Source: a virus. Taken from it: 64,000 nt of DNA. Below are positions 1 through 8,600 of the stretch, in pieces. The stretch lies in UHGV virus genome UHGV-1366828, one strand, 5' to 3'. A program made the translations under genes and the position numbers. The notes below the pieces were generated by a model that did not search any database, was not told the origin of the DNA, and saw only the letters and a list, made by a program, of their open reading frames with translations. Numbering within the stretch: position 1 is the stretch's first letter; each line of letters begins with the position of its first letter.

Positions 1-2349
1 GGGACATTCTGTAGCCTGCCGTAACCGAGCTACCATTGACAAAATGTTTGCTGTAGACATATCTACTTTGTCGACCTGGTCAACAATACCTGCTTGAATG
101 TTGGAGTAGAATGTTTCCTGTGTGGGGTTCATTTCTACAATCTGCGTAATTATTGTCTTTTCTGGGAGGTCAAGAAGATCTTTCGTTCTTCTTAGTGAAC
201 ACTCGTTAAGCTGTTCCTTTAACGTATCAACATTTCTGTAACCTACAAAATCGTTGTTGAAGAACCCTGTATAGTTACAGTAGTAATACTTAAAGTTACT
301 AAAACTGCAATGTTCCTTACCAATCCACTTCAATGGAATGTAAGCATCAAGAGGACTATTAAGAAGTAACGTTCCCGTTAAAGCTACTCGATACTTTGCA
401 GAAGTTAACTTCAGAAAATTCTTAGACTGAACAGCTGTAGGATTCTTACAACGATGGACTTCATCAATGATAATGAGGTCGAACTTATTTGCGCCTTTAT
501 TGATTCCTTTTACAACATTTGCATCTCTTAAAGTTTCAATGTTTGTTACAACAAAGAATTCATCAATGGTCCTGTTTAGATCAGCAACTCTGTCATTCAC
601 ACTTCCGATTGTGAATTTACCAGATTTTGTAATACGTTGACCTAATATGTAACAACTTTCCTTAGTATGTTTTTCAATTTCTCTTTTCCAGTTGAATTTA
701 AGGTTGTTAACACCACAAATAATTAAACAGTGCTCAATCCCTTCACGCTTTTTCAGTTCGAGAGCCAAGTAAAGCATCTGCAACGTATTATGTGTTACAC
801 AGCACCCTTCGATTAGATACGTCTTTGAAGGGCTGTCAACAGTAATACATCGTCCAACTTTCAAAGTTATGGGCTCAATTTTAGCAAACCGCCTTCTCGG
901 ATTACCTCCATTGCTTCTTGCTCTTAACAACTCTTTCTTACGTGGCAGGGTTACAAACAAGGAAGGGTCGGCTACACGTATGGTTAGACTATAGGACAAT
1001 CCTGTACACTTCCCGTTATATTTAGCTTGTCCTACATGTTTATGACATATTCCTCCTAGGGACTCTACAATTTCACGAACATCGTCACACAATTTCTCAG
1101 AGACAGTTGAGTAATCTAAGTGATTATCCTTAGCAGCATAACCATCTGTGTCAAACAGTCCTCGAAGAACGTCCATTCTAACTTCAACAGTGTTGTACTT
1201 ATAGACATCAGGAATAAATTTGGTGTGAGAAGTACAACCAAACAATCCCAGGTCAAGAAGGTCTTGATGCAAGGGATTTCCAGCTTCTCTTCTGTACGAC
1301 CACCTAGACCCGGCATATAAACTGTTTTGATTAATACTATATTTTATTTCGTCCAATTTTTTATACATAAGATTAGTATTATCTGTCGGCAACCCTAGAT
1401 ATCTGCACACCTCTTTACCTGACCCAATTCTAACGCCGTCCGCATACCATACGTAACCTCTGTTTGTAATAACTTGTCCCTCTTTCTGGCATATTCTATA
1501 GGATATTGGGGCGCACTTTTTCAACTGTAAATCTTCGGGAAGGTTTTCCCTTACTTTGTTTACAATATGTTCATCCACAGTTGTAATATCAATGGATTTT
1601 GAGATGCTACCGTCACCAAGTAAGACCCCTAACAAATAGGGTTGAATTGGGACATTTTGATGAACAAACTGAATGGGTTTTGTTAGGGGCACATAGTAAG
1701 GCGTTTCTTTTGAGTCAATACGTCTGTAAGATTTTCTACAATCATTCTCAAGAAACCACTTAGTAGGAACAACTCTTCCGTCGGATAATAACCACAAATG
1801 GTCTTCGCAACAGTCAACAGTTAAGCCATCTGTGAATGTAACTCTGTACATATTCAGGTTATCGTGGTCATACACTGCTAACACTTTGCAAGGATTGCCC
1901 TCTTTGTCTATAACAAAATCTCCTACTTTTAATTCTCCCATTGTGGTTTTACCCGTAGGAGTATACACACTAGTATCTAAACTAACGGCTTTTCCAAGAC
2001 CGGGTGCGTCAAGAAGTAGCCATTTATCATGAGACAGGCCAAATTTTATCCCGTCGGCTTGATATGGAAACGGAGTTGTTTTAAACTCGCTAAGTTGAAC
2101 ATCTTTAACAGGATGTTTCTTTTCATCAGGCTTCAACTTTAACTCAATATCGTCAAAAACATTAACACTATTTATAATTGAAGCAAGGTCAGTAACAGGG
2201 ACTTCCCACATCTTACTTTTCTTGTCATAGTTAGCTACAGTAACACTGTTTTTAAGTGCTTCTATAATGTCTTTGTTGTACTCAAAGCTAACATACAGAG
2301 AAGAGGTGCCGGGAACCTTGCTGTTTAATTTTTCTTCAATCGTTATCAA
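1..2349 (-). CDS. SNF2-family (DExH) DNA helicase, partial (3' end beyond window start), interrupted in-frame by an intein; probable TTG start about 2349 after an AAGGAG site
   Basis: I hand-translated the minus strand from 2349 down to 421 and it is continuous with no stops. N-terminal part reads ...PYQADGIKFGLSHDKWLLLDAPGLGK (SNF2 motif I). After the intein comes TLQMLYLALELKKREG..., then DLIIIDEVHRCKN (motif II, DEVH) and LTGTLLLNSPLD (motif III). The ORF track lacks it because the stop lies outside the window. Confidence 0.8.
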   Translation of the reverse strand, partial: MITIEEKLNSKVPGTSSLYVSFEYNKDIIEALKNSVTVANYDKKSKMWEVPVTDLASIINSVNVFDDIELKLKPDEKKHPVKDVQLSEFKTTPFPYQADGIKFGLSHDKWLLLDAPGLGKAVSLDTSVYTPTGKTTMGELKVGDFVIDKEGNPCKVLAVYDHDNLNMYRVTFTDGLTVDCCEDHLWLLSDGRVVPTKWFLENDCRKSYRRIDSKETPYYVPLTKPIQFVHQNVPIQPYLLGVLLGDGSISKSIDITTVDEHIVNKVRENLPEDLQLKKCAPISYRICQKEGQVITNRGYVWYADGVRIGSGKEVCRYLGLPTDNTNLMYKKLDEIKYSINQNSLYAGSRWSYRREAGNPLHQDLLDLGLFGCTSHTKFIPDVYKYNTVEVRMDVLRGLFDTDGYAAKDNHLDYSTVSEKLCDDVREIVESLGGICHKHVGQAKYNGKCTGLSYSLTIRVADPSLFVTLPRKKELLRARSNGGNPRRRFAKIEPITLKVGRCITVDSPSKTYLIEGCCVTHNTLQMLYLALELKKREGIEHCLIICGVNNLKFNWKREIEKHTKESCYILGQRITKSGKFTIGSVNDRVADLNRTIDEFFVVTNIETLRDANVVKGINKGANKFDLIIIDEVHRCKNPTAVQSKNFLKLTSAKYRVALTGTLLLNSPLDAYIPLKWIGKEHCSFSNFKYYYCNYTGFFNNDFVGYRNVDTLKEQLNECSLRRTKDLLDLPEKTIITQIVEMNPTQETFYSNIQAGIVDQVDKVDMSTANILSMVARLRQATECP
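787..1989 (-). mobile_element. Intein (about 401 aa) with LAGLIDADG homing-endonuclease domain, inserted in helicase P-loop between GLGK and TLQ
   Basis: Hint block A AVSLDTSVYTPTG..., block B DCCEDHLWLL, LAGLIDADG motifs LLGVLLGDGSIS and LRGLFDTDGY, C-terminal VTHN followed by Thr (+1). Removing it restores canonical GLGKTLQ. The first residue appears to be Ala rather than Cys/Ser. Confidence 0.75.
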
Positions 2350-2457
2350 ACAATTTATCTCCTTTTATAAGGGGTATATAAGAAAGGTAGCTGACAAAGG
2401 TAACCTAACCTTTCAAATAGAAGAAAATGTCAGCTACCCCCGTTGCGTCGTCAAACA

Positions 2458-2772
2458 TCAACTGATACGCCATTTATAGTCGTAATATTTCCGATGAAGG
2501 TTTCCTTTAGATTTAGTTTCCTCGAAATCAATTCTCCGAACACACTTATGAGACATCTTCTTGTGATAAGGGCTACCATAGTAATACTGTTTAAGATACT
2601 TTCTGTTGTAATAGTTGTTCCACCAAACAGCTACAGACGGAGAATCACTAAGCAATCTTTTAAGTTTCTGCTGATATACTTCTTCACGAAAACGACGATA
2701 TTCTGAAGTCCTGTTCAAAAATATTACCCCTTTCTTTATTTCGGGACATGTTTTGCTATCCAACTTACACAT
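2458..2772 (-). CDS. hypothetical protein (104 aa), basic, Tyr-rich
   Basis: Intact ORF in the co-directional gene array; no recognisable motif. The true start may be downstream if the overlapping small ORF is real. Confidence 0.45.
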   Translation of the reverse strand: MCKLDSKTCPEIKKGVIFLNRTSEYRRFREEVYQQKLKRLLSDSPSVAVWWNNYYNRKYLKQYYYGSPYHKKMSHKCVRRIDFEETKSKGNLHRKYYDYKWRIS

Positions 2773-2861
2773 CTGATACCAATAAGAATCAAGCAGAGAT
2801 AAGAAACAATTTCATTCTCTACTAGTGCCATCAGTATAATCAGAAGAAGGCTGGATAACAT
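2736..2861 (-). CDS. small hydrophobic peptide (41 aa, MLSSLLLIILMALVENEIVSYLCLILIGIRCVSWIAKHVPK)
   Basis: ATG 7 nt downstream of TAAGGAGTG; single predicted TM segment. It is below the 60-aa ORF-track cutoff and overlaps the annotated start of the 104-aa ORF. Confidence 0.3.
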   Translation of the reverse strand: MLSSLLLIILMALVENEIVSYLCLILIGIRCVSWIAKHVPK

Positions 2862-2890
2862 TTTAAACACTCCTTAAAAATAATGATATA

Positions 2891-3196
2891 TCAATCTTCT
2901 GGGAGTAGAATTTTATCCGTGGCTAATATAGTTGTATAATCTTCGTTGAAATTATGGTCTGTATCTTCTTTAGCACTAAAACTAATCTTTGCGCTTATTC
3001 TGAATGGAGTATCACAATAGTTACATGTATAACATTCTTCCGTGTCTATATCTGTTCCGTAAACTTCTAAAATCTTATGAGTGTCTCCGGATCTTTCAAT
3101 ATAGTTAGCCTTTCCAAAAAAAGCTGTAGGTAAATAGATTTCTTGTGCCAAATATTCTGCACCACAACGTGGGCAAGTTATAACTGTTCTTTTCAT
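2891..3196 (-). CDS. zinc-ribbon protein (101 aa; CPRCG ... CNYCD)
   Basis: Two CxxC pairs; AGGAGC 9 nt upstream of the ATG. Confidence 0.55.
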   Translation of the reverse strand: MKRTVITCPRCGAEYLAQEIYLPTAFFGKANYIERSGDTHKILEVYGTDIDTEECYTCNYCDTPFRISAKISFSAKEDTDHNFNEDYTTILATDKILLPED

Positions 3197-3224
3197 TCTA
3201 TAAGCTCCTGTTTTCTACAATAAT

Positions 3225-3253
3225 ATTCTATTATATATAGATACTGAAATCAA
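3225..3253 (-). promoter_or_regulatory. sigma70-like promoter (minus strand): -35 TTGATT, 17-nt spacer, -10 TAGAAT, about 25 nt upstream of the 3196 start
   Basis: Read directly on the minus strand in the AT-rich 265-bp gap. It follows the terminator of the upstream late operon. Confidence 0.4.
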
Positions 3254-3329
3254 CTTGAAATTTCTTAATTTCAAAATATATAATTTAATACTATTATTTG
3301 TTAATTTTATATTGTTATTATTTGTCCTA

Positions 3330-3390
3330 ACTTAGTTAAGAACAGGCTGTTAACTTAGTAAAGAACAAGCCGTTTACTTAGTTAAGAACT
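3330..3390. repeat. Three direct repeats ACTTAGT(T/A)AAGAAC with 23-24 bp spacing (iteron/operator-like)
   Basis: Copies at 3330-3343, 3353-3366 and 3377-3390 in an AT-rich intergenic region between two transcription units. Confidence 0.6.
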
Positions 3391-3404
3391 TATGTTTACT
3401 TTCT

Positions 3405-3445
3405 ATACAACAAAATGAGGACATCCATTACAGATGCCCTCAAGT
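3405..3445 (-). terminator. Candidate rho-independent terminator ending the long structural operon
   Basis: Minus-strand RNA GAGGGCAUCuguaauGGAUGUCCUC (stem with one mismatch) followed by AUUUUGUUGU; lies 20 nt past the stop at 3462. Confidence 0.45.
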
Positions 3446-3461
3446 AGCGTGTATATTTTAG

Positions 3462-3992
3462 TTATTCAATAACTCCGCCGTCAATAACTGACAGGTCAAG
3501 TGAGTCTTTAGAGAACCGAATCTTACTTTCTTCGGGAACTTTCCAACTTCCGTCGTTATCTAGTTGCGCCAACTTAAGGGTCTTTACAACACCTGAATGT
3601 TGTGCTGTATACTCAAGGGCATTGTCAATTACAAGGCCTGTGTAAAGATTATTGTCGTCTTGCCCCCACAGTTCGTTATATACAAGACCGTCGTCAGCTG
3701 TTGCTGAAACTAATTCTATATGAGCATATACACTACCAGAGGTGTAGGTAGTTCCTAGCCCGATAGAACTTACAGGGTCTTCAATACGGAAATAATATCC
3801 AAATAGATTAAATTCTAGAGGCGCATCATCTGTTAATACATCTACATCGGATATGACGAATCCGTCTAAATCAATTAGTTTGTTTGTAATACCAACAAGT
3901 GCTTGTTCTGACATCAGCTTAGCAAGGGGTTTACTCCCGCCACGTCTTGTTGCTGGGAATACATTTATTTTGTTTGAAGTTATCGTTGCCAT
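3462..3992 (-). CDS. hypothetical tail/baseplate-associated protein (176 aa)
   Basis: Last ORF of the tail module; no motif recognised. Confidence 0.45.
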   Translation of the reverse strand: MATITSNKINVFPATRRGGSKPLAKLMSEQALVGITNKLIDLDGFVISDVDVLTDDAPLEFNLFGYYFRIEDPVSSIGLGTTYTSGSVYAHIELVSATADDGLVYNELWGQDDNNLYTGLVIDNALEYTAQHSGVVKTLKLAQLDNDGSWKVPEESKIRFSKDSLDLSVIDGGVIE

Positions 3993-4002
3993 TTATTTCT
4001 CC

Positions 4003-4515
4003 TTAGCCTTCATCTGGGTTTGTCATTCTCATTGCCCATTCAATTATAGCATTTACACCAGGGACAATTCTTGACAACTGTTCTGCTGGAATTTCTAGTC
4101 TTGCCAAATCTCTTTTTCCTGTTTTATCTTCTGTGTCCGTCACTAGATATAACATGAACACATCTGTAGAATCAACAGGAACAGCGGCGTATAACATATC
4201 GCTTGAGATTACCGCTGTAAAGTTAGCAACAAATCTTCCTTGATTGTCTACCTTCCAGCTTGCTCCTGTTAACGGAAGTCTATTTATTGTTAAATAGGAC
4301 AGGAAGTCATTGGTACTGCCAGGTACTAGCTTTCTTACGTCAATGTACTTCGGAATGTCACAATCCCCTCGGTAGTTTCCGCTCATTATTCTTGCAAAAG
4401 ACTCAAACAAAGCAGGCAGTCCTTCATTGTGGGACTGGAAGGAGAATACTCGGTCCTTTATTTTTAATTTTACATTAACATTTCCATTGTACCAAGTTTC
4501 AGTTATATTTTTCAC
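4003..4515 (-). CDS. hypothetical tail protein (170 aa)
   Basis: Intact ORF, tightly packed with its neighbours. Confidence 0.45.
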   Translation of the reverse strand: MKNITETWYNGNVNVKLKIKDRVFSFQSHNEGLPALFESFARIMSGNYRGDCDIPKYIDVRKLVPGSTNDFLSYLTINRLPLTGASWKVDNQGRFVANFTAVISSDMLYAAVPVDSTDVFMLYLVTDTEDKTGKRDLARLEIPAEQLSRIVPGVNAIIEWAMRMTNPDEG

Positions 4516-5624
4516 TTCGTTCTCCGATCTGGATCTTCCAATCCGTAGGCTTGTAGTATATATCTTGCAAAATTACACTCTTCCCATACACCGTTTAACT
4601 GTAAGTAGTATTTTCCCTCACAGTATACTAGAGAGATTTGTGGGAGACCTAGTTGTGCTTTCAGTTCAATTGTTTTTTTACGAGAAGTCCTTCTTGAACG
4701 AGGAATTGACGGAACAGTTCCCTTGAAATCAATTCTTCCAAATTCTAAGTTTCCATTCTCAGCATCTATTCCAGTTACAATAACAGGCTCTCCCCTGCCC
4801 ATAGCATCGTTTACTATTGCTACGGTATACAACTTTTCTGTAAGAGTATTTATGTAATTTTCTGCGTCTTCCAGTTTGGTGTAGTATCCAACAAATCTTG
4901 GGCTGTTGTAACTTGTTGTAGAAATGACAGGGGCAGTGTTTGCTGCACCCACACGGTATTTAGTTTCCGCATTTGACATCCCTTGAGGAGTTCCCCTTAC
5001 TTCAGCATTCAAGTTATCCGAAACAAAGATTAACTCTGCGGAGTCTACATTATACAATACAATATCGGGAAGTTCGACGTTCTTATCAAATTCTATGTAG
5101 TAATTTATACCGGCAGGCAGAATATAGCGAAAAATTTCTTCTAGTACTGTAATGTCGGGTTTTGTTGAAAATGAGTGTATTTTTACTACTAAGCTGTTGT
5201 TTTCTGGAAATTTTCCATTTGCTAACACACAAGGCATTGCTTCAGAAAAAGGTTTACTGTATGGGGTTTTTAAGTAGTAAACTTCCAAATCAGAAGAAAC
5301 GGAATACATTCTTAAGAACAAGTATAACGTTTCTTTTATTGCTTTTAACGACCCTTTATTCTTTACTAGGATCGGGAAACATTCTAGAACTTTACGGAGT
5401 TTTTCGTCGTCTATTTTCTTTTCAGTAAAGAAGCCTAATTTAGTTTGTAGTAGTTGTAATATACTAGTTCTACACTGTTGCGTATCTATCAATTCTACAA
5501 TTGAATCCGTATCGAATTTCATTCCATTGAATACACAATCATATAAACGAGACAAAAGCTGAAAGTCTCTTGACTCCTCAGTGTAGATCTGAGGAGTCAT
5601 TTCTTGTACATTTATTATACTCAT
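4512..5624 (-). CDS. baseplate protein (370 aa), occupying the position of P2 gpI / T4 gp7-like wedge component
   Basis: Overlaps the upstream 1524-aa gene by 1 nt and follows the W/J-like genes; call is by synteny only. Confidence 0.4.
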   Translation of the reverse strand: MSIINVQEMTPQIYTEESRDFQLLSRLYDCVFNGMKFDTDSIVELIDTQQCRTSILQLLQTKLGFFTEKKIDDEKLRKVLECFPILVKNKGSLKAIKETLYLFLRMYSVSSDLEVYYLKTPYSKPFSEAMPCVLANGKFPENNSLVVKIHSFSTKPDITVLEEIFRYILPAGINYYIEFDKNVELPDIVLYNVDSAELIFVSDNLNAEVRGTPQGMSNAETKYRVGAANTAPVISTTSYNSPRFVGYYTKLEDAENYINTLTEKLYTVAIVNDAMGRGEPVIVTGIDAENGNLEFGRIDFKGTVPSIPRSRRTSRKKTIELKAQLGLPQISLVYCEGKYYLQLNGVWEECNFARYILQAYGLEDPDRRTK

Positions 5625-8600
5625 TATCTCTTACCTGCTATATAGATTGAAGTTTTGTCGGAAGAGTCAAACTGACATATTGTGAACTTGTTATAGATGT
5701 GATTCGTATTTAGGAAGGAAGCAGCTTCGAGAGGATTTGCAATCAACTCATCGTCATCTACTTGATATGTGTAGTTGAATATGTTGTCTACATCAAATCT
5801 TGGAATCAACGTTAACATACGTTCAAAATACTCTTCGCTAATACTGTCAGGATGCGTATACAAGAACGGGTTCTGAAGCGTTATTGTAACTTCTTCTGTT
5901 GACATTGTTCTGGTAACGGTTAACTGATGATTGCTCGTAATAGTATCGTCTGTAACTTCAAATGTTAAGTAATATGTACGTTGTCCCTTCAAATCAGTTT
6001 GTGTTGAGTTAAGAGAAGTTAGATTTTCTCCATCAAACTGTATTGTCAACGAATCATTGTCAGGGAACTTATTTGTATTACTAAACGGAATCAAGTATCT
6101 TCCCTTAGGAAGAATGAACTGAATTGTAGCTGTTTTTCCGGAAGCTCCCGCAACCAATTTAATCTTAACATCGTCTTTTCCATATACAACAGTATCTGTG
6201 GAAAGTTGCTTCTGGTAGACAAGAAGATTCATATAACGTCTATTTCCTTCGCTGTCTACAATATAGGTAGGAAGTTTATCCGAACTACCATCAGAATCAA
6301 TAGACATTGAAGAAATAAGAGCTGTTTGATAATAGTTATTGGACTCTTTATCTGCACCCGTTATTACATAAGAAGAAAAATCAGAAGCATTTGCTGTTTG
6401 GAATTCAATGGTCTGATTTGACAGGAGTACTCGTTCTGTGTCCGGACCAACCTTCAGGTTTAACAACGATTGCGCATTCCAAGAGACAACATTTCCACTA
6501 CTATTCTGAAGCTCCATCTGAGGTAGAAACACCCAAGCGTTATCTTCTGGGCTCTGGTACCCGATTGTAAATCCTTGTAATGTCAACGAAGTTGGGTCAG
6601 TTGTATTCTCTGCGTAGGTGTATGTAACAACTACTGTTGCGCCATTCGGAATAACACCTGTATCAACTGTGCAGGTTTGAGCTCCTTGATTGAAGGTATA
6701 GTTGGTAACTGTTACGGCACCTTCCCCTGTTGTCGTATAAACAACGGACACAATTCCTGTAACACTTGTTTGAGTAAATGTTATTGTATTGCTTGTACCG
6801 TCAACCCAGGAATTAACTGTTTTAGATGTTGTGTGTGGAGTTACATTTGATCCTGACTTTACACCGCCTCGATTGAATACTCTAGACCAAGATGCAAGAT
6901 TGTCATTCACAAGCCTGAATTTTGTTCCTGCATTCAATGTGTATATCTTATTCTCTGTTAACTCTACATATCCATTTGTTGGAATTTCTTTCCAGTAGTT
7001 AGCAAGAGCAGATGCGCCAGAGTTTAAGATAACAGAAGAATCTAGAACTTTAACTCTCCACATATTTATTTCTGTGTTAGGCTCTACAACGTGAACTCTT
7101 GTTCCGGAACCCAGAATTGACATCTCGCTCAGGTCAGCATTTGAATATATGAAATACTCTCCTGCATCTAATAACCTGTCGTGTGTTGTATCATTTCCGT
7201 GGTTTACGGGAAATTCATAATACTGTAAATCTTCAGTTGTTTCGTTTAGTATCCAGTAACAATAACAACCATCAGAAGAGTTGATAGTAACTTCATTTAT
7301 TTTCTTGATGACAAGAGTTTTTGTGCCTGACAAGATATTTGCAGCAGAATTCAAGTTTAGACCAACTGCACTTGAAAGATCTGCTAGGTATCCCATATTG
7401 TCCGTACTGGTGTAATTATTCGGGCTCAAGTCTGTTTCTGACTGTAAGAAAGCTCCTCCAACAGACGTATTACTAGAGGTCAGTTCAAATGTAGGACAGA
7501 CGATATGACCTTTACCATAACTAGCAAATCTGTAGTAAGCATCTTTGTTGTCGCTATCTTTCCAGTACAGGAACAAATACTCATTTGGGAGTAACTGATA
7601 GTTTGTATTAGCGTTTATTACTTTACTAGAAGCATTGGGTGTATAGAACTCAAACTTAACATAGTTTGAATAACTTGTTGCATCTATCAGGTTTGGTGAG
7701 TAGAACTGAATGCTTTCATTGTCTCTGAGTGTATACTCATTTGAAGTGTTACTCACAGCTATGTCAACATTAGTTCTTACATATTTAACATCGTTTACTT
7801 CATATTTATCTTGTGCTTCATTGTTTGGACGGTTGCTGTTGTAAGTCTGGTCAAAACGATGTGTGTATTTATTTCCGGAAATGATTAACGGAGTTTTTCC
7901 GGCAAGTATAGACTTAGCATATATCTCATCTTCAAACTGTGTCTTATAAGAGATACGTGCCGTAATTTTGTCACCAGTTACAATATTTGACCCTTCAGTC
8001 GACCAATAAGTAATAACAACAGGAACTCCAGTAGATGACGGAGACGGTAAAGTAACAACTTTATTACTAAAGGTTGATCCCGATAACTCAACTCTACTAC
8101 GGGTAACACTCTCTATACGATTTACTGCGTAAGCTACAGTGAACTGTGTTTGATTTGCTGTTGCAATAAATGTCTCTTCATACTTGAAGTAGATACCATA
8201 ATCTGTTAAATTAACATTTGTTGTGTTTAGTTTCCAGTTTGGACTACTATAAACAAACGTAATAGGCTCGTAGTTTGTCTCGCCTGCTTTCCGCATAAAC
8301 ACTTGAGGGTCGGCAATAGGAACAGACTCGTTCGTAAACTGATATGATATGTCAACTTTATCTTCTGGGGTGTTGATTGCTACTTCAACAAATGGGTAGC
8401 CTGTGTCAACTAGATTTTTATCGTAATACACAGCATATGTAGTAAACTCTATATTTGCCATGTTTACATCTTTTATTCTTGCATCAGAAGCTTGAATAAT
8501 TTCTTTTACTTTTTCCAGTGTTACTTCTGACCCAAAATCAAGTTCTTTTGAACTCAACTTATTATACAGGGCGGATTTTATAGTTCCCATCATGTCAGAA

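Follow-up and report, generated by a model that had tools for sequence, protein, structure and literature searches.

The SNF2-family helicase gene lying on the minus strand at the start of the window (the whole 64,000-nt stretch of phage DNA analysed here) most probably carries a class 3 intein with a two-motif LAGLIDADG homing endonuclease, inserted at GLGK/T in the Walker A motif (a slash marks the insertion point throughout); to this reading, including the mechanism proposed below, we assign a probability of roughly 0.88. It rests on the anatomy of the element, its exact boundaries, its fold, the conservation of its catalytic residues, the existence of empty-site alleles and the purifying selection acting on the exteins.

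Read from 2349 down to 1, the minus strand translates as one uninterrupted frame that leaves the window at its edge. A preliminary description of this DNA had read a single open frame from 2349 to 421, with SNF2 sequence, a 401-aa insert, TLQMLYLALEL and DEVH, as well as a helicase missed by the ORF track, and translation bears out both points; the gene is absent from the ORF list because ORFs running off the window are not listed. Its parts are the following:

Positions 2359-2364, minus strand: ribosome-binding site AAGGAG, 9 nt 5' of the start codon (direct sequence reading).
Positions 2347-2349, minus strand: TTG start codon of the helicase precursor gene (the 560-aa intein-free orthologues align from residue 1).
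Positions 1990-2349, minus strand: N-extein, 120 codons, ending in ...DAPGLGK, with Lys-1 at 1992-1990 (translation, Pfam).
Positions 787-1989, minus strand: probable class 3 intein, 401 codons (1,203 nt), from Ala1 (GCC, 1989-1987) to Asn401 (AAT, 789-787).
Positions 784-786, minus strand: Thr+1 (ACG), first residue of the C-extein, Walker A Thr of GLGKT and predicted acceptor nucleophile.
Positions 1-786, minus strand: C-extein, its first 262 codons only, the gene extending past window position 1 (Pfam SNF2-rel_dom, 1.7e-21).

The assignment of the host protein to the SNF2-family helicases is based on the SNF2-rel_dom match (1.7e-21), the Walker A motif GLGK/T and the motif II DEVH. Pfam weakly recognises a HARP-like region at the N terminus of the N-extein, which also includes the first half of Walker A, and the C-extein contains the SNF2 ATPase lobe 1, with DEVH at 465-454. 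Only the full-length intein-free orthologues (560 aa) show the Helicase_C lobe; the part of the gene within the window ends before it, at residue 382 of the spliced product, and judging by the length of these orthologues about 178 further codons are to be expected. The nearest annotated helicases, from the phages Streptococcus Dp-1/MS1, Bacillus Flasso and Clostridium phiCTP1, are at most 43% identical, and a megablast of window positions 1-6000 against deposited phages returned no match. The gene comes from a tailed-phage contig, the source being an uncultured phage of roughly 130 kb, and no prophage copies of this phage were found in 185,579 species genomes.

The precursor reads ...LLLDAPGLGK/AVSLDTSVYT...CCVTHN/TLQMLYLALEL...DEVH, with neither a stop nor a frameshift over the 401 intein codons from 1989 to 787, and the insertion point falls between Lys120 and Thr121 of Walker A. 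In alleles of this helicase that lack the intein (560 aa), the corresponding stretch is GGA AAG/ACG TTG CAA, that is, GLGK/TLQ without interruption, and it is because they run unbroken that the insert can be defined as exactly 1,203 nt, in frame, between those two residues. The empty site reads ...CCGGGTCTTGGAAAG/ACGTTGCAAATGC..., and the empty allele L002 reads ...CCGGGTCTTGGAAAG/ACGTTGCAAATGCTC... around the junction. Compared with these alleles, the exteins of the window show 98-99% protein and 92-95% nucleotide identity, and the DNA flanking the insertion is collinear with the intein-free loci (96.6% over 8.8 kb). As had been proposed, then, the insertion separates the Lys and the Thr of GLGKT, and its removal restores a conserved host sequence, the Walker A P-loop. 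All 120 near and distant orthologues among the matches listed are intein-free, as are all 13 IMG/VR loci, so that the occupied allele is rare among the sampled alleles.

The intein itself had been described as a Hint fold plus LAGLIDADG at 787-1989, to be checked with HMMs for both, and the lack of a Hint hit had been named as a result that would speak against it. The outcome of that check was divided: LAGLIDADG_3 matched, and the Hint and intein models of Pfam and NCBIfam gave no match above threshold on the splicing domain. That silence, which formally corresponds to the result named, is not an absence of Hint, since a sequence search of the PDB and structure prediction do find the fold. The best phmmer matches in the PDB are the inteins MchDnaB1 (6rix/6riy) and MsmDnaB1 (6bs8/6own), with E about 2e-8 and with both the N and C parts covered. 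The AF2 model of the intein reaches a pLDDT of 87 and a pTM of 0.84; in Foldseek, the whole model matches PI-SceI at 5.6e-19, and the Hint core superimposes on 6bs8 with an rmsd of 1.2 Å and 36% identity. With homologues at E values down to 4e-84 in a search of 5.8 billion proteins, together with the PDB inteins at 2e-8 and the PI-SceI fold at 5.6e-19, the identification as an intein is far beyond chance. In the model, the Hint fold encloses a two-motif LAGLIDADG endonuclease, and the inteins that come nearest to its core, by sequence and predicted structure, are those of the mycobacterial DnaB-1 type, which belong to class 3. The motifs reported previously (DCCEDH, LLGVLLGDGSIS, LRGLFDTDGY and CCVTHN/T) are all present where they had been placed, and the splicing blocks are located as follows:

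Positions 1951-1989, minus strand: splicing block A (AVSLDTSVYTPTG), whose residue 1 is a non-nucleophilic Ala (PDB search, homologue alignment).
Positions 1786-1827, minus strand: splicing block B (GLTVDCCEDHLWLL), aligned to Mch His65/Trp67.
Positions 811-858, minus strand: splicing block F (VGRCITVDSPSKTYLI), its Cys aligned to the catalytic Cys118 (Msm) and Cys124 (Mch).
Positions 787-807, minus strand: splicing block G (GCCVTHN; homologue alignment).

The same anatomy bears on the reading of the insert as a group I or group II intron whose LAGLIDADG ORF is in frame by chance, which would make it an element acting at the RNA rather than the protein level. Phage introns do commonly carry LAGLIDADG endonucleases and there are other mobile elements in the same window, among them the split intein in the terminase, which the preliminary description had identified correctly. 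Nevertheless, the insert is in frame, free of stops and a multiple of three (1,203 nt), the N and C halves of Hint bracket the endonuclease with splice-junction residues at the exact ends, all homologues keep the arrangement ...GK/X...THN/T or S, and Rfam found no intron or other RNA family in window positions 1-3500. An intron is thus barely credible.

The residues expected to carry out splicing are conserved throughout the family. Of the 58 homologues whose alignment covers residue 1, 46 have Ala there, and none (0/58) has Cys, Ser or Thr. Block B contains Cys61 (B:7, 1809-1807), His64 (B:10, 1800-1798) and Trp66 (B:12, 1794-1792, the "W" of the WCT triplet), the His being conserved in 90/92 homologues and the Trp in 88/92. 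In block F, Cys381 (F:4, TGT at 849-847) is the "C" of WCT and the predicted initiating nucleophile, and a Cys is found there in every one of 77 homologues; the same holds (77/77 each) for the three residues that end block G, namely Thr399 (G:5, 795-793, the "T" of WCT), His400 and Asn401 (789-787). The +1 residue is Thr in 61 of these homologues and Ser in the other 16, never Cys. The required intein end, His400-Asn401, and the hydroxyl nucleophile, Thr+1, are therefore in place, and His64, Trp66, Cys381 and Thr399 align with Mch His65/Trp67/Cys124/Thr143 and Msm Cys118.

These residues also decide the class. Ala is indeed the first residue of the intein (codon GCC at 1989-1987), as the preliminary description had stated, and from it a class 2 intein of the KlbA type had been deduced. 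As in the class 2 intein of Methanocaldococcus jannaschii KlbA, an Ala1 start implies that the first acyl shift is skipped; however, that one is a mini-intein in KlbA with no WCT, Asp F:4, Ser G:6 and Cys+1, all of which differ here (PMC4031507). More generally, class 2 is defined by a missing WCT triplet, which is present in the window, and its known members are all KlbA orthologues with Asp F:4, Ser G:6, Thr B:7 and Cys+1 (PMC2807308, PMC4031507), in contrast to the Cys F:4, His G:6, Thr G:5, Trp B:12 and Thr+1 observed in an intein whose host is a helicase. [quoted passage not shown] Class 2 is consequently very improbable, and the earlier assignment did not stand: Trp B:12, Cys F:4, Thr G:5, His G:6 and Thr+1 align with class 3 catalytic residues.

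The sequence features of class 3, whose definition and mechanism are taken from PMC2807308, PMC5222942 and PMC4031507, are all found here: there is no Ser, Thr or Cys at position 1, the WCT triplet is formed by Trp66/Cys381/Thr399, and +1 is Thr (ACG, 786-784). Host and site are typical as well, this being the P-loop GLGK/T of a SNF2 helicase on a tailed-phage contig: class 3 inteins have been described in DnaB, RecG, SNF2 and TerL, mostly at the P-loop (PMC2807308, PMC5222942, PMC4031507), and the homologues of the window's intein reside in SNF2, PhoH, RecA, DnaB, UvrD-like and TerL proteins. The catalytic roles of Mch His65/Trp67/Cys124/Thr143 and of Msm Cys118 are documented (PMC7664689, PMC6195587). 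The grafting of WCT onto a class 1 intein was insufficient for class 3 splicing (PMC7664689), and the motif by itself is therefore no proof of a class 3 mechanism. The element is an ordinary one, a clean further instance of the well-described class 3 inteins.

The splicing chemistry that we infer from these alignments would proceed as follows. A single precursor would be translated, in which the ATPase is presumably inactive because the intein breaks the P-loop. Since Ala1 cannot undergo an N-S acyl shift, Cys381, positioned by His64, Trp66 and Thr399, would instead attack the Lys(-1)-Ala1 bond directly, giving, by homology, a thioester known as the "block F branched intermediate". The N-extein would then be transferred to the hydroxyl of Thr+1, generating the standard block G branched ester, and the cyclisation of Asn401, assisted by His400, would release the intein. 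A final O-N shift would yield the native GLGKTLQ P-loop and, with it, an active helicase.

Between the Hint halves lies the endonuclease, with these features:

Positions 925-1686, minus strand: LAGLIDADG (dodecapeptide) homing-endonuclease domain, about intein residues 102-355 (Pfam, AF2, Foldseek).
Positions 1600-1638, minus strand: first LAGLIDADG motif (YLLGVLLGDGSIS), acidic Asp126 at 1614-1612 (Asp in at least 90% of the family).
Positions 1294-1479, minus strand: 62-aa insert private to this intein, within the first half of the endonuclease (GQVITNRGYVWYADGVRIGSGKEVCRYLGLPTDNTNLMYKKLDEIKYSINQNSLYAGSRWSY; intein residues 171-232), boundaries approximate (missing in 40/40 aligned relatives).
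Positions 1230-1204, minus strand: block D Lys257 (SHTKFIPDV).
Positions 1135-1176, minus strand: second LAGLIDADG motif (MDVLRGLFDTDGYA), acidic Asp282 at 1146-1144 (this Asp conserved in 90% or more of the family).

In Pfam, the domain is matched by LAGLIDADG_3 (1.4e-9) and Hom_end (2.6e-4), and the AF2 model retrieves PI-SceI, TliVMA, PI-PfuI and I-DmoI as structural matches in Foldseek. It is of the two-motif type, with a pair of alpha-beta-beta-alpha-beta-beta-alpha subdomains, YLLGVLLGD126G and LRGLFDTD282G each contributing a conserved acidic residue, and Gly277, Asp280, Gly283 and Lys257 are invariant in the family alignment. Potential cleavage targets exist in the form of the empty-site alleles. 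The enzyme is predicted to be active and would be expected to cut intein-free helicase alleles at GGA AAG/ACG TTG during co-infection, and the repair of the cut allele would copy the intein in (homing).

The 62-aa insert is predicted to fold as strand-strand-helix-helix (AF2, pLDDT 65-73). HMMER found no homologue of it in 1.84 billion representative proteins; four weak matches were rejected, as they merely reflect the YxWYxDG hairpin motif of PKD/Ig repeats. A tblastn search against phages returned only noise, no repeats flanking the insert were found, and neither Pfam nor PHROGs supports an origin from NUMOD/HTH modules. The insert could impair the endonuclease. Alternatively, one may speculate, at rather long odds, that this orphan is a recently gained module for DNA recognition or regulation, which gave the enzyme a new target range and allowed the intein lineage to enter the helicase of this phage, and that, instead or in addition, splicing is conditional on redox state or zinc. 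The latter idea draws on a family-wide Cys at B:7 near Cys381 and on the pairs Cys60/61 and Cys396/397, which by analogy could provide such a switch. If true, the activity of the helicase would be gated post-translationally, as for the mycobacterial DnaB-1 class 3 intein.

The selection acting on the exteins bears indirectly on whether the element still splices. Their dN/dS against the empty alleles is 0.013-0.023, and the changes private to the window comprise 23 synonymous and 1 non-synonymous. This excess on the window's own branch points to a working helicase and thereby implies splicing, provided that the intein has been present over a good part of that branch. As for its arrival, the SNPs private to the window show no clustering around the insertion site that would mark a co-conversion tract (a weak comparison, with three reference alleles), and no same or near-identical intein, that is, none above 44% identity, was found in IMG/VR or in 5.8 billion proteins, so that neither line of evidence points directly to recent homing. 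Nor is there any compositional sign of recent import, as the GC and GC3 of the intein equal those of the exteins.

The rarity of the occupied allele, with 120 listed orthologues and 13 IMG/VR loci lacking the intein, and the private insert inside the endonuclease might suggest a decayed, non-splicing remnant within a dead or cleavage-only helicase allele or, in a milder form, an immobile intein that keeps splicing with an inactive endonuclease. There is even a published precedent in Arth_1007, a class 3-like intein pseudogene (PMC3196547). Nonetheless, its exteins measure 66 aa, whereas those of the window consist of full-size helicase sequence and are under strong purifying selection, also on the window's own branch (23:1). 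In addition, the 1,203-nt frame is intact with all the catalytic splicing residues, the endonuclease retains its block D Lys and the Asp of each LAGLIDADG motif, and the structural model is confident and well folded. Decay is thus quite unlikely, and a class 3 intein remains the preferred reading.

Among characterized inteins, those that match the Hint core best, in sequence as in structure, are the class 3 DnaB-1 inteins of Mycobacterium smegmatis and M. chimaera (DnaB-b site; 6BS8/6OWN and 6RIX/6RIY). They share with it Ala1, His B:10, Trp B:12, Cys F:4, Thr G:5 and the His-Asn end, and also the kind of site, a helicase ATPase P-loop whose Walker A hydroxyl residue is supplied by the +1 Ser/Thr (PMC6195587). 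However, they are mini-inteins of 139-145 aa devoid of endonuclease, in contrast to the 250-aa LAGLIDADG domain present here; their host is a bacterial DnaB instead of a phage SNF2 protein, the identity of the Hint cores is only about 27-36%, and B:7 is Asp in them and Cys in the window. The founding class 3 intein, that of mycobacteriophage Bethlehem DnaB (MP-Be DnaB), whose Cys F:4 was established experimentally as the obligate nucleophile, is likewise phage-encoded and helicase-sited, and shares the non-nucleophilic residue 1, WCT, Thr+1, a full size (341 aa) and an endonuclease region (PMC2807308). Compared by published features, it differs in residue 1 (Pro, Ala in the window), in B:7 (Ser, here Cys), and in host protein and phage group. 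The Deinococcus radiodurans Snf2 intein, as cited in PMC5222942 and PMC4031507, is also a class 3 intein in a SNF2-family helicase, although a bacterial one, for which Brace et al. (2010) are cited as having detected the block F branched intermediate experimentally.

Inteins at the same site occur in distant metagenomic orthologues (P0004, P0005 and P0014, as well as P0001-P0003), with N-exteins of 118-119 aa that end in GLGK or GMGK and are followed by T. They have the class 3 residues and the LAGLIDADG domain in common with the window's intein, identity amounting to only 31-44% for the intein and 37-56% for the exteins, and are 338-363 aa long, without the 62-aa insert. At least P0001, P0002, P0004, P0005 and P0014 carry a second, split intein after motif II, which is not found in the window's gene. 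The best whole-chain structural matches, namely PI-SceI (yeast VMA1), the archaeal VMA inteins and PI-PfuI, likewise have a two-motif LAGLIDADG endonuclease interrupting the Hint domain, but they are class 1 inteins (Cys1, Cys+1) with 12-17% identity to the window's and unrelated hosts; moreover, the additional DNA-recognition region of PI-SceI belongs to its Hint domain rather than to its endonuclease.

In practical terms, the locus should be annotated as a single intein-containing SNF2 helicase precursor gene, with the intein labelled as class 3, not class 2, a distinction that determines which residue (Cys381) to mutate in order to trap or control splicing. The sequence, at most 44% identical to anything sampled, is a divergent class 3 intein usable for intein engineering, and the occupied and empty alleles, 98-99% identical in protein, make up a natural matched pair that is convenient for testing homing and extein dependence. 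For the biology of these elements, it is one more case linking class 3 inteins, phages and helicase P-loops and, since this association was already known, it leaves the current understanding unchanged.

When the minus strand is translated from 2400 to 1, a stop is followed by one open frame that reaches window position 1; the start codon of this frame is likely the TTG at 2349-2347, nine bases downstream of an AAGGAG ribosome-binding site (2364-2359). This helicase frame is absent from the mechanical ORF list only because the list omits ORFs running off the window. Its product reads, in order, ...FPYQADGIKFGLSHDKWLLLDAPGLGK / AVSLDTSVYT ... EGCCVTHN / TLQMLYLALEL ... IIIDEVHRCKNP ... LTGT, with all the motifs quoted in the preliminary description in their places, and the middle segment (401 codons, 1989-787, minus strand) is, as claimed there, an uninterrupted frame without stop or frameshift. 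Pfam places SNF2-rel_dom (E 1.7e-21) and ResIII in the C-terminal part, and matches the insert to LAGLIDADG_3 and Hom_end. Helicase residues ~20-70 (2290-2140, minus strand) give a weak Pfam HARP match (E 1e-4, below cut-off), and HARP (PF07443) is a precomputed match in several helicase orthologues, which hints at a SMARCAL1-like annealing helicase.

Comparison of the junctions with intein-free alleles, together with the collinearity of the flanks, establishes the element as a clean insertion of 1,203 nt that keeps the frame and separates Lys120 from Thr121 in the Walker A motif GLGKT. When the conceptually spliced extein (382 aa, i.e., the helicase parts flanking the insert) was searched against 5.8 billion proteins, 3,352 matches were obtained, and each of the top 120 is a helicase of ~560 aa without interruption; 30 of these 120 cover the query completely (100%) at 96-99% identity, one cluster among the 30 comprising 462 member sequences. 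The 13 further loci of the helicase in IMG/VR are also uninterrupted (13/13), and three contigs with intein-free alleles (L001-L003) were retrieved. The empty site reads ...GGT CTT GGA AAG / ACG TTG CAA ATG..., and the occupied site in the window ...GGT CTT GGA AAA / GCC GTT AGT ... ACA CAT AAT / ACG TTG CAG ATG..., while the flanking DNA is collinear with the empty-allele contigs (identity 96.6% over the upstream 8.8 kb and 94.3% on the downstream side). This Lys/Thr position has been named the "classic" P-loop insertion (PMC5050341). Small ORFs upstream of the helicase (compare window ~2450-2900) vary among the three alleles: in L001, two additional small genes, of 41 and 86 aa, separate a 101-aa gene from the helicase, and these are uncalled in L002 and L003.

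The preliminary description had proposed a Hint plus LAGLIDADG intein starting with Ala1 in the SNF2 P-loop, and had made it depend on a Hint domain hit. In that respect Pfam and NCBIfam are blank, with no Hint/intein-splicing match on the flanking parts of the insert, whereas three independent tests (PDB sequence search, structural model and Foldseek) find the intein fold and overturn this absence. The top phmmer matches among PDB sequences are the class 3 DnaB mini-inteins of Mycobacterium chimaera (MchDnaB-1, 6rix/6riy) and M. smegmatis (MsmDnaB-1, 6bs8/6own), with E ~2e-8 to 6e-8, followed by the gp41-1, PI-SceI and DnaE inteins, the alignment spanning the N-terminal 70 and C-terminal 22 residues of the insert. 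An AlphaFold2 model built on an alignment of 41 sequences is confident (mean pLDDT 87, pTM 0.84); as a whole chain it retrieves from the PDB, using Foldseek, the intein-endonucleases PI-SceI (E 5.6e-19), TliVMA, PhoVMA and PI-PfuI, and its Hint core is closest to MsmDnaB-1 (rmsd 1.2 A over 78 columns, 36% identity). Together with the junction DNA, these results bear out the proposed intein, and since no Rfam family, self-splicing introns included, is found in window 1-3500, the element acts at the protein level.

Regarding the mechanism, no Trp-Cys-Thr triplet occurs in class 2 inteins, whose F:4, G:6 and +1 (the first C-extein residue) are Asp, Ser and Cys, whereas in class 3 inteins B:12 is Trp, F:4 Cys and G:5 Thr, with +1 almost always Ser/Thr (PMC2807308, PMC4031507, PMC5222942). 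The corresponding residues in the window are the following.

Splicing residues of the window intein (block:position)
1989-1987, minus strand: Ala1 (GCC), intein position 1
1800-1798, minus strand: His64, B:10
1794-1792, minus strand: Trp66, B:12
849-847, minus strand: Cys381, F:4
795-793, minus strand: Thr399, G:5
792-790, minus strand: His400, G:6
789-787, minus strand: Asn401, G:7
786-784, minus strand: Thr, C-extein +1

From Ala1, a KlbA-type class 2 intein had been proposed, an assignment contradicted by the Trp66/Cys381/Thr399 triplet, His at G:6 and Thr+1. In the HMMER alignment, the class 3 residues pair with MchDnaB-1 His65, Trp67, Cys124 and Thr143 and with MsmDnaB-1 Cys118, which form the class 3 active site according to crystallography and mutagenesis (PMC7664689, PMC6195587). 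A search with the intein sequence gave 96 homologues. Of the 58 that align at residue 1, 46 have Ala and none has Cys/Ser/Thr (0/58); B:10 is His in 90/92 and B:12 Trp in 88/92; Cys F:4, Thr G:5, His G:6 and Asn G:7 are each found in 77/77; at +1, Thr occurs in 61, Ser in 16 and Cys in 0, and the N-extein ends with Lys in 52 and Arg in 5. The homologues are hosted by SNF2, PhoH, RecA, DnaB, UvrD-like and TerL proteins. Judged from these sequences, the pattern is a family property and not a coincidence, and class 2 is therefore rejected in favour of class 3. As for B:7 (1809-1807, minus strand), usually Thr in class 1 inteins, it is Cys in 62/92 members of the family alignment (consensus CEDHLW), and adjacent Cys pairs (C60/C61 and C396/C397) lie close to the splice junctions of the window intein. 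Redox/zinc control of splicing is reportedly a feature of MsmDnaB-1, and by analogy these cysteines could be relevant to such control.

By homology, the precursor, with its P-loop broken, should be devoid of ATPase activity; Cys381 would attack the Lys(-1)-Ala1 amide bond, giving a thioester block F branched intermediate, the N-extein would be passed to the Thr+1 hydroxyl, Asn401 would cyclise to free the intein, and an O-N shift would restore GLGKTLQ. Against five intein-free alleles, the exteins show dS of 0.29-0.46 and dN/dS of 0.013-0.023, and the nucleotide states private to them are 23 synonymous versus 1 non-synonymous. This lends indirect support to productive splicing, because a lineage with a permanently broken P-loop would hardly be expected to keep such constraint, an argument that presupposes the presence of the intein over a good part of the window's branch.

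Both LAGLIDADG motifs retain their acidic residue (YLLGVLLGD126G, LRGLFDTD282G), all family members share the block D lysine (SHTK257FIP) as well as Ser310 and Gly312 of the block-H-like stretch ESLGG, and at least 90% of them have Leu311 and Gly313 of that stretch, which suggests an intact two-motif enzyme. At 401 aa, the intein is longer than its same-site relatives (338-363 aa), the difference being a stretch of 62 residues in the first half of the endonuclease (~residues 171-232, 1479-1294, minus strand), missing from 40/40 aligned relatives and modelled with moderate confidence (pLDDT 65-73) as strand-strand-helix-helix. The searches do not support the idea that it is a small DNA-binding module with a helix-turn-helix, such as other homing endonucleases of phages contain: Pfam, PHROGs and phage tblastn give no match, and exhaustive HMMER against 1.84 billion representatives gives no homologue, its four weak matches being to the YxWYxDG hairpin of PKD/Ig repeats. 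No DNA repeats flanking the stretch were found, and by all these comparisons it is an orphan.

Predicted natural targets of the endonuclease exist, namely the empty helicase alleles. Homing has left no direct trace in the comparisons made: no clustering of window-private SNPs is seen at the intein junction (with three references only), and the composition of the intein (GC 39.6%, GC3 34.2%) is close to that of the exteins (36.7%, 34.6%). No intein more than 44% identical to it occurs in the 5.8-billion-protein collection or IMG/VR; the nearest relatives occupy the identical site in metagenomic helicase orthologues with exteins ~37-56% identical (P0001-P0005, P0014). Since the extein residues adjoining the junction are identical to those of the local empty alleles, a donor as distant as these orthologues is unlikely, and the intein probably circulates at low frequency in its own or a close, poorly sampled phage population.

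The window spans a structural and replication region of a tailed phage, with genes for the portal, the head protease, tail-fibre proteins and a homing endonuclease that stands free. Near-identical phages are present on contigs of 82-134 kb, with no close relative among deposited phages and no prophage copy in the species-genome collection. The intein family is widespread in deposited phages, where tblastn finds it in 619 records, 300 of them mycobacteriophages and many others matching jumbo-phage helicases and terminases, all below ~38% identity. Amid the head genes, a 500-aa ORF (46987-45485, minus strand) matches PHROG homing endonuclease/HNH endonuclease families (E 8e-75) and may be the one carried by the capsid intron mentioned in the preliminary description. 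The large terminase seems to be made from two frames, the products of which are joined by a naturally split intein of the class 1 type: the first (57463-56504, minus strand; Walker A GSIGIGKS) ends ...LGRAVFS/CLDGDTLIMT...TPNHRFML...IVFN and a stop, and the second (56369-54804, minus strand), ~130 nt apart, starts MKIKSITRI...SYVVSHN/CFCDEVSF (Walker B), with a Pfam Intein_splicing match of 5e-5, below the curated cut-off. A second, naturally split intein also lies after motif II of the helicase in P0001, P0002, P0004, P0005 and P0014; on the P0004 contig (L017, 6001-8908) the helicase ORF ends ...TPEHKIYTKNRGYVEAQSL... and a stop, and the next ORF reads MKLIKKEI...GILVHN/CKSPTSQ, matching residues 230-484 of the intact helicase. 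The window helicase is uninterrupted there (DEVHRCKNP).

The preliminary description was thus right on what the element is and where it lies, and wrong on its class, which is 3 and not 2. The window intein adds a new and divergent member to a kind that is already well described, with host type and site as expected for it, and would not surprise a specialist; only the existence of matched alleles with and without the intein, and the orphan endonuclease insert, go slightly beyond the routine.
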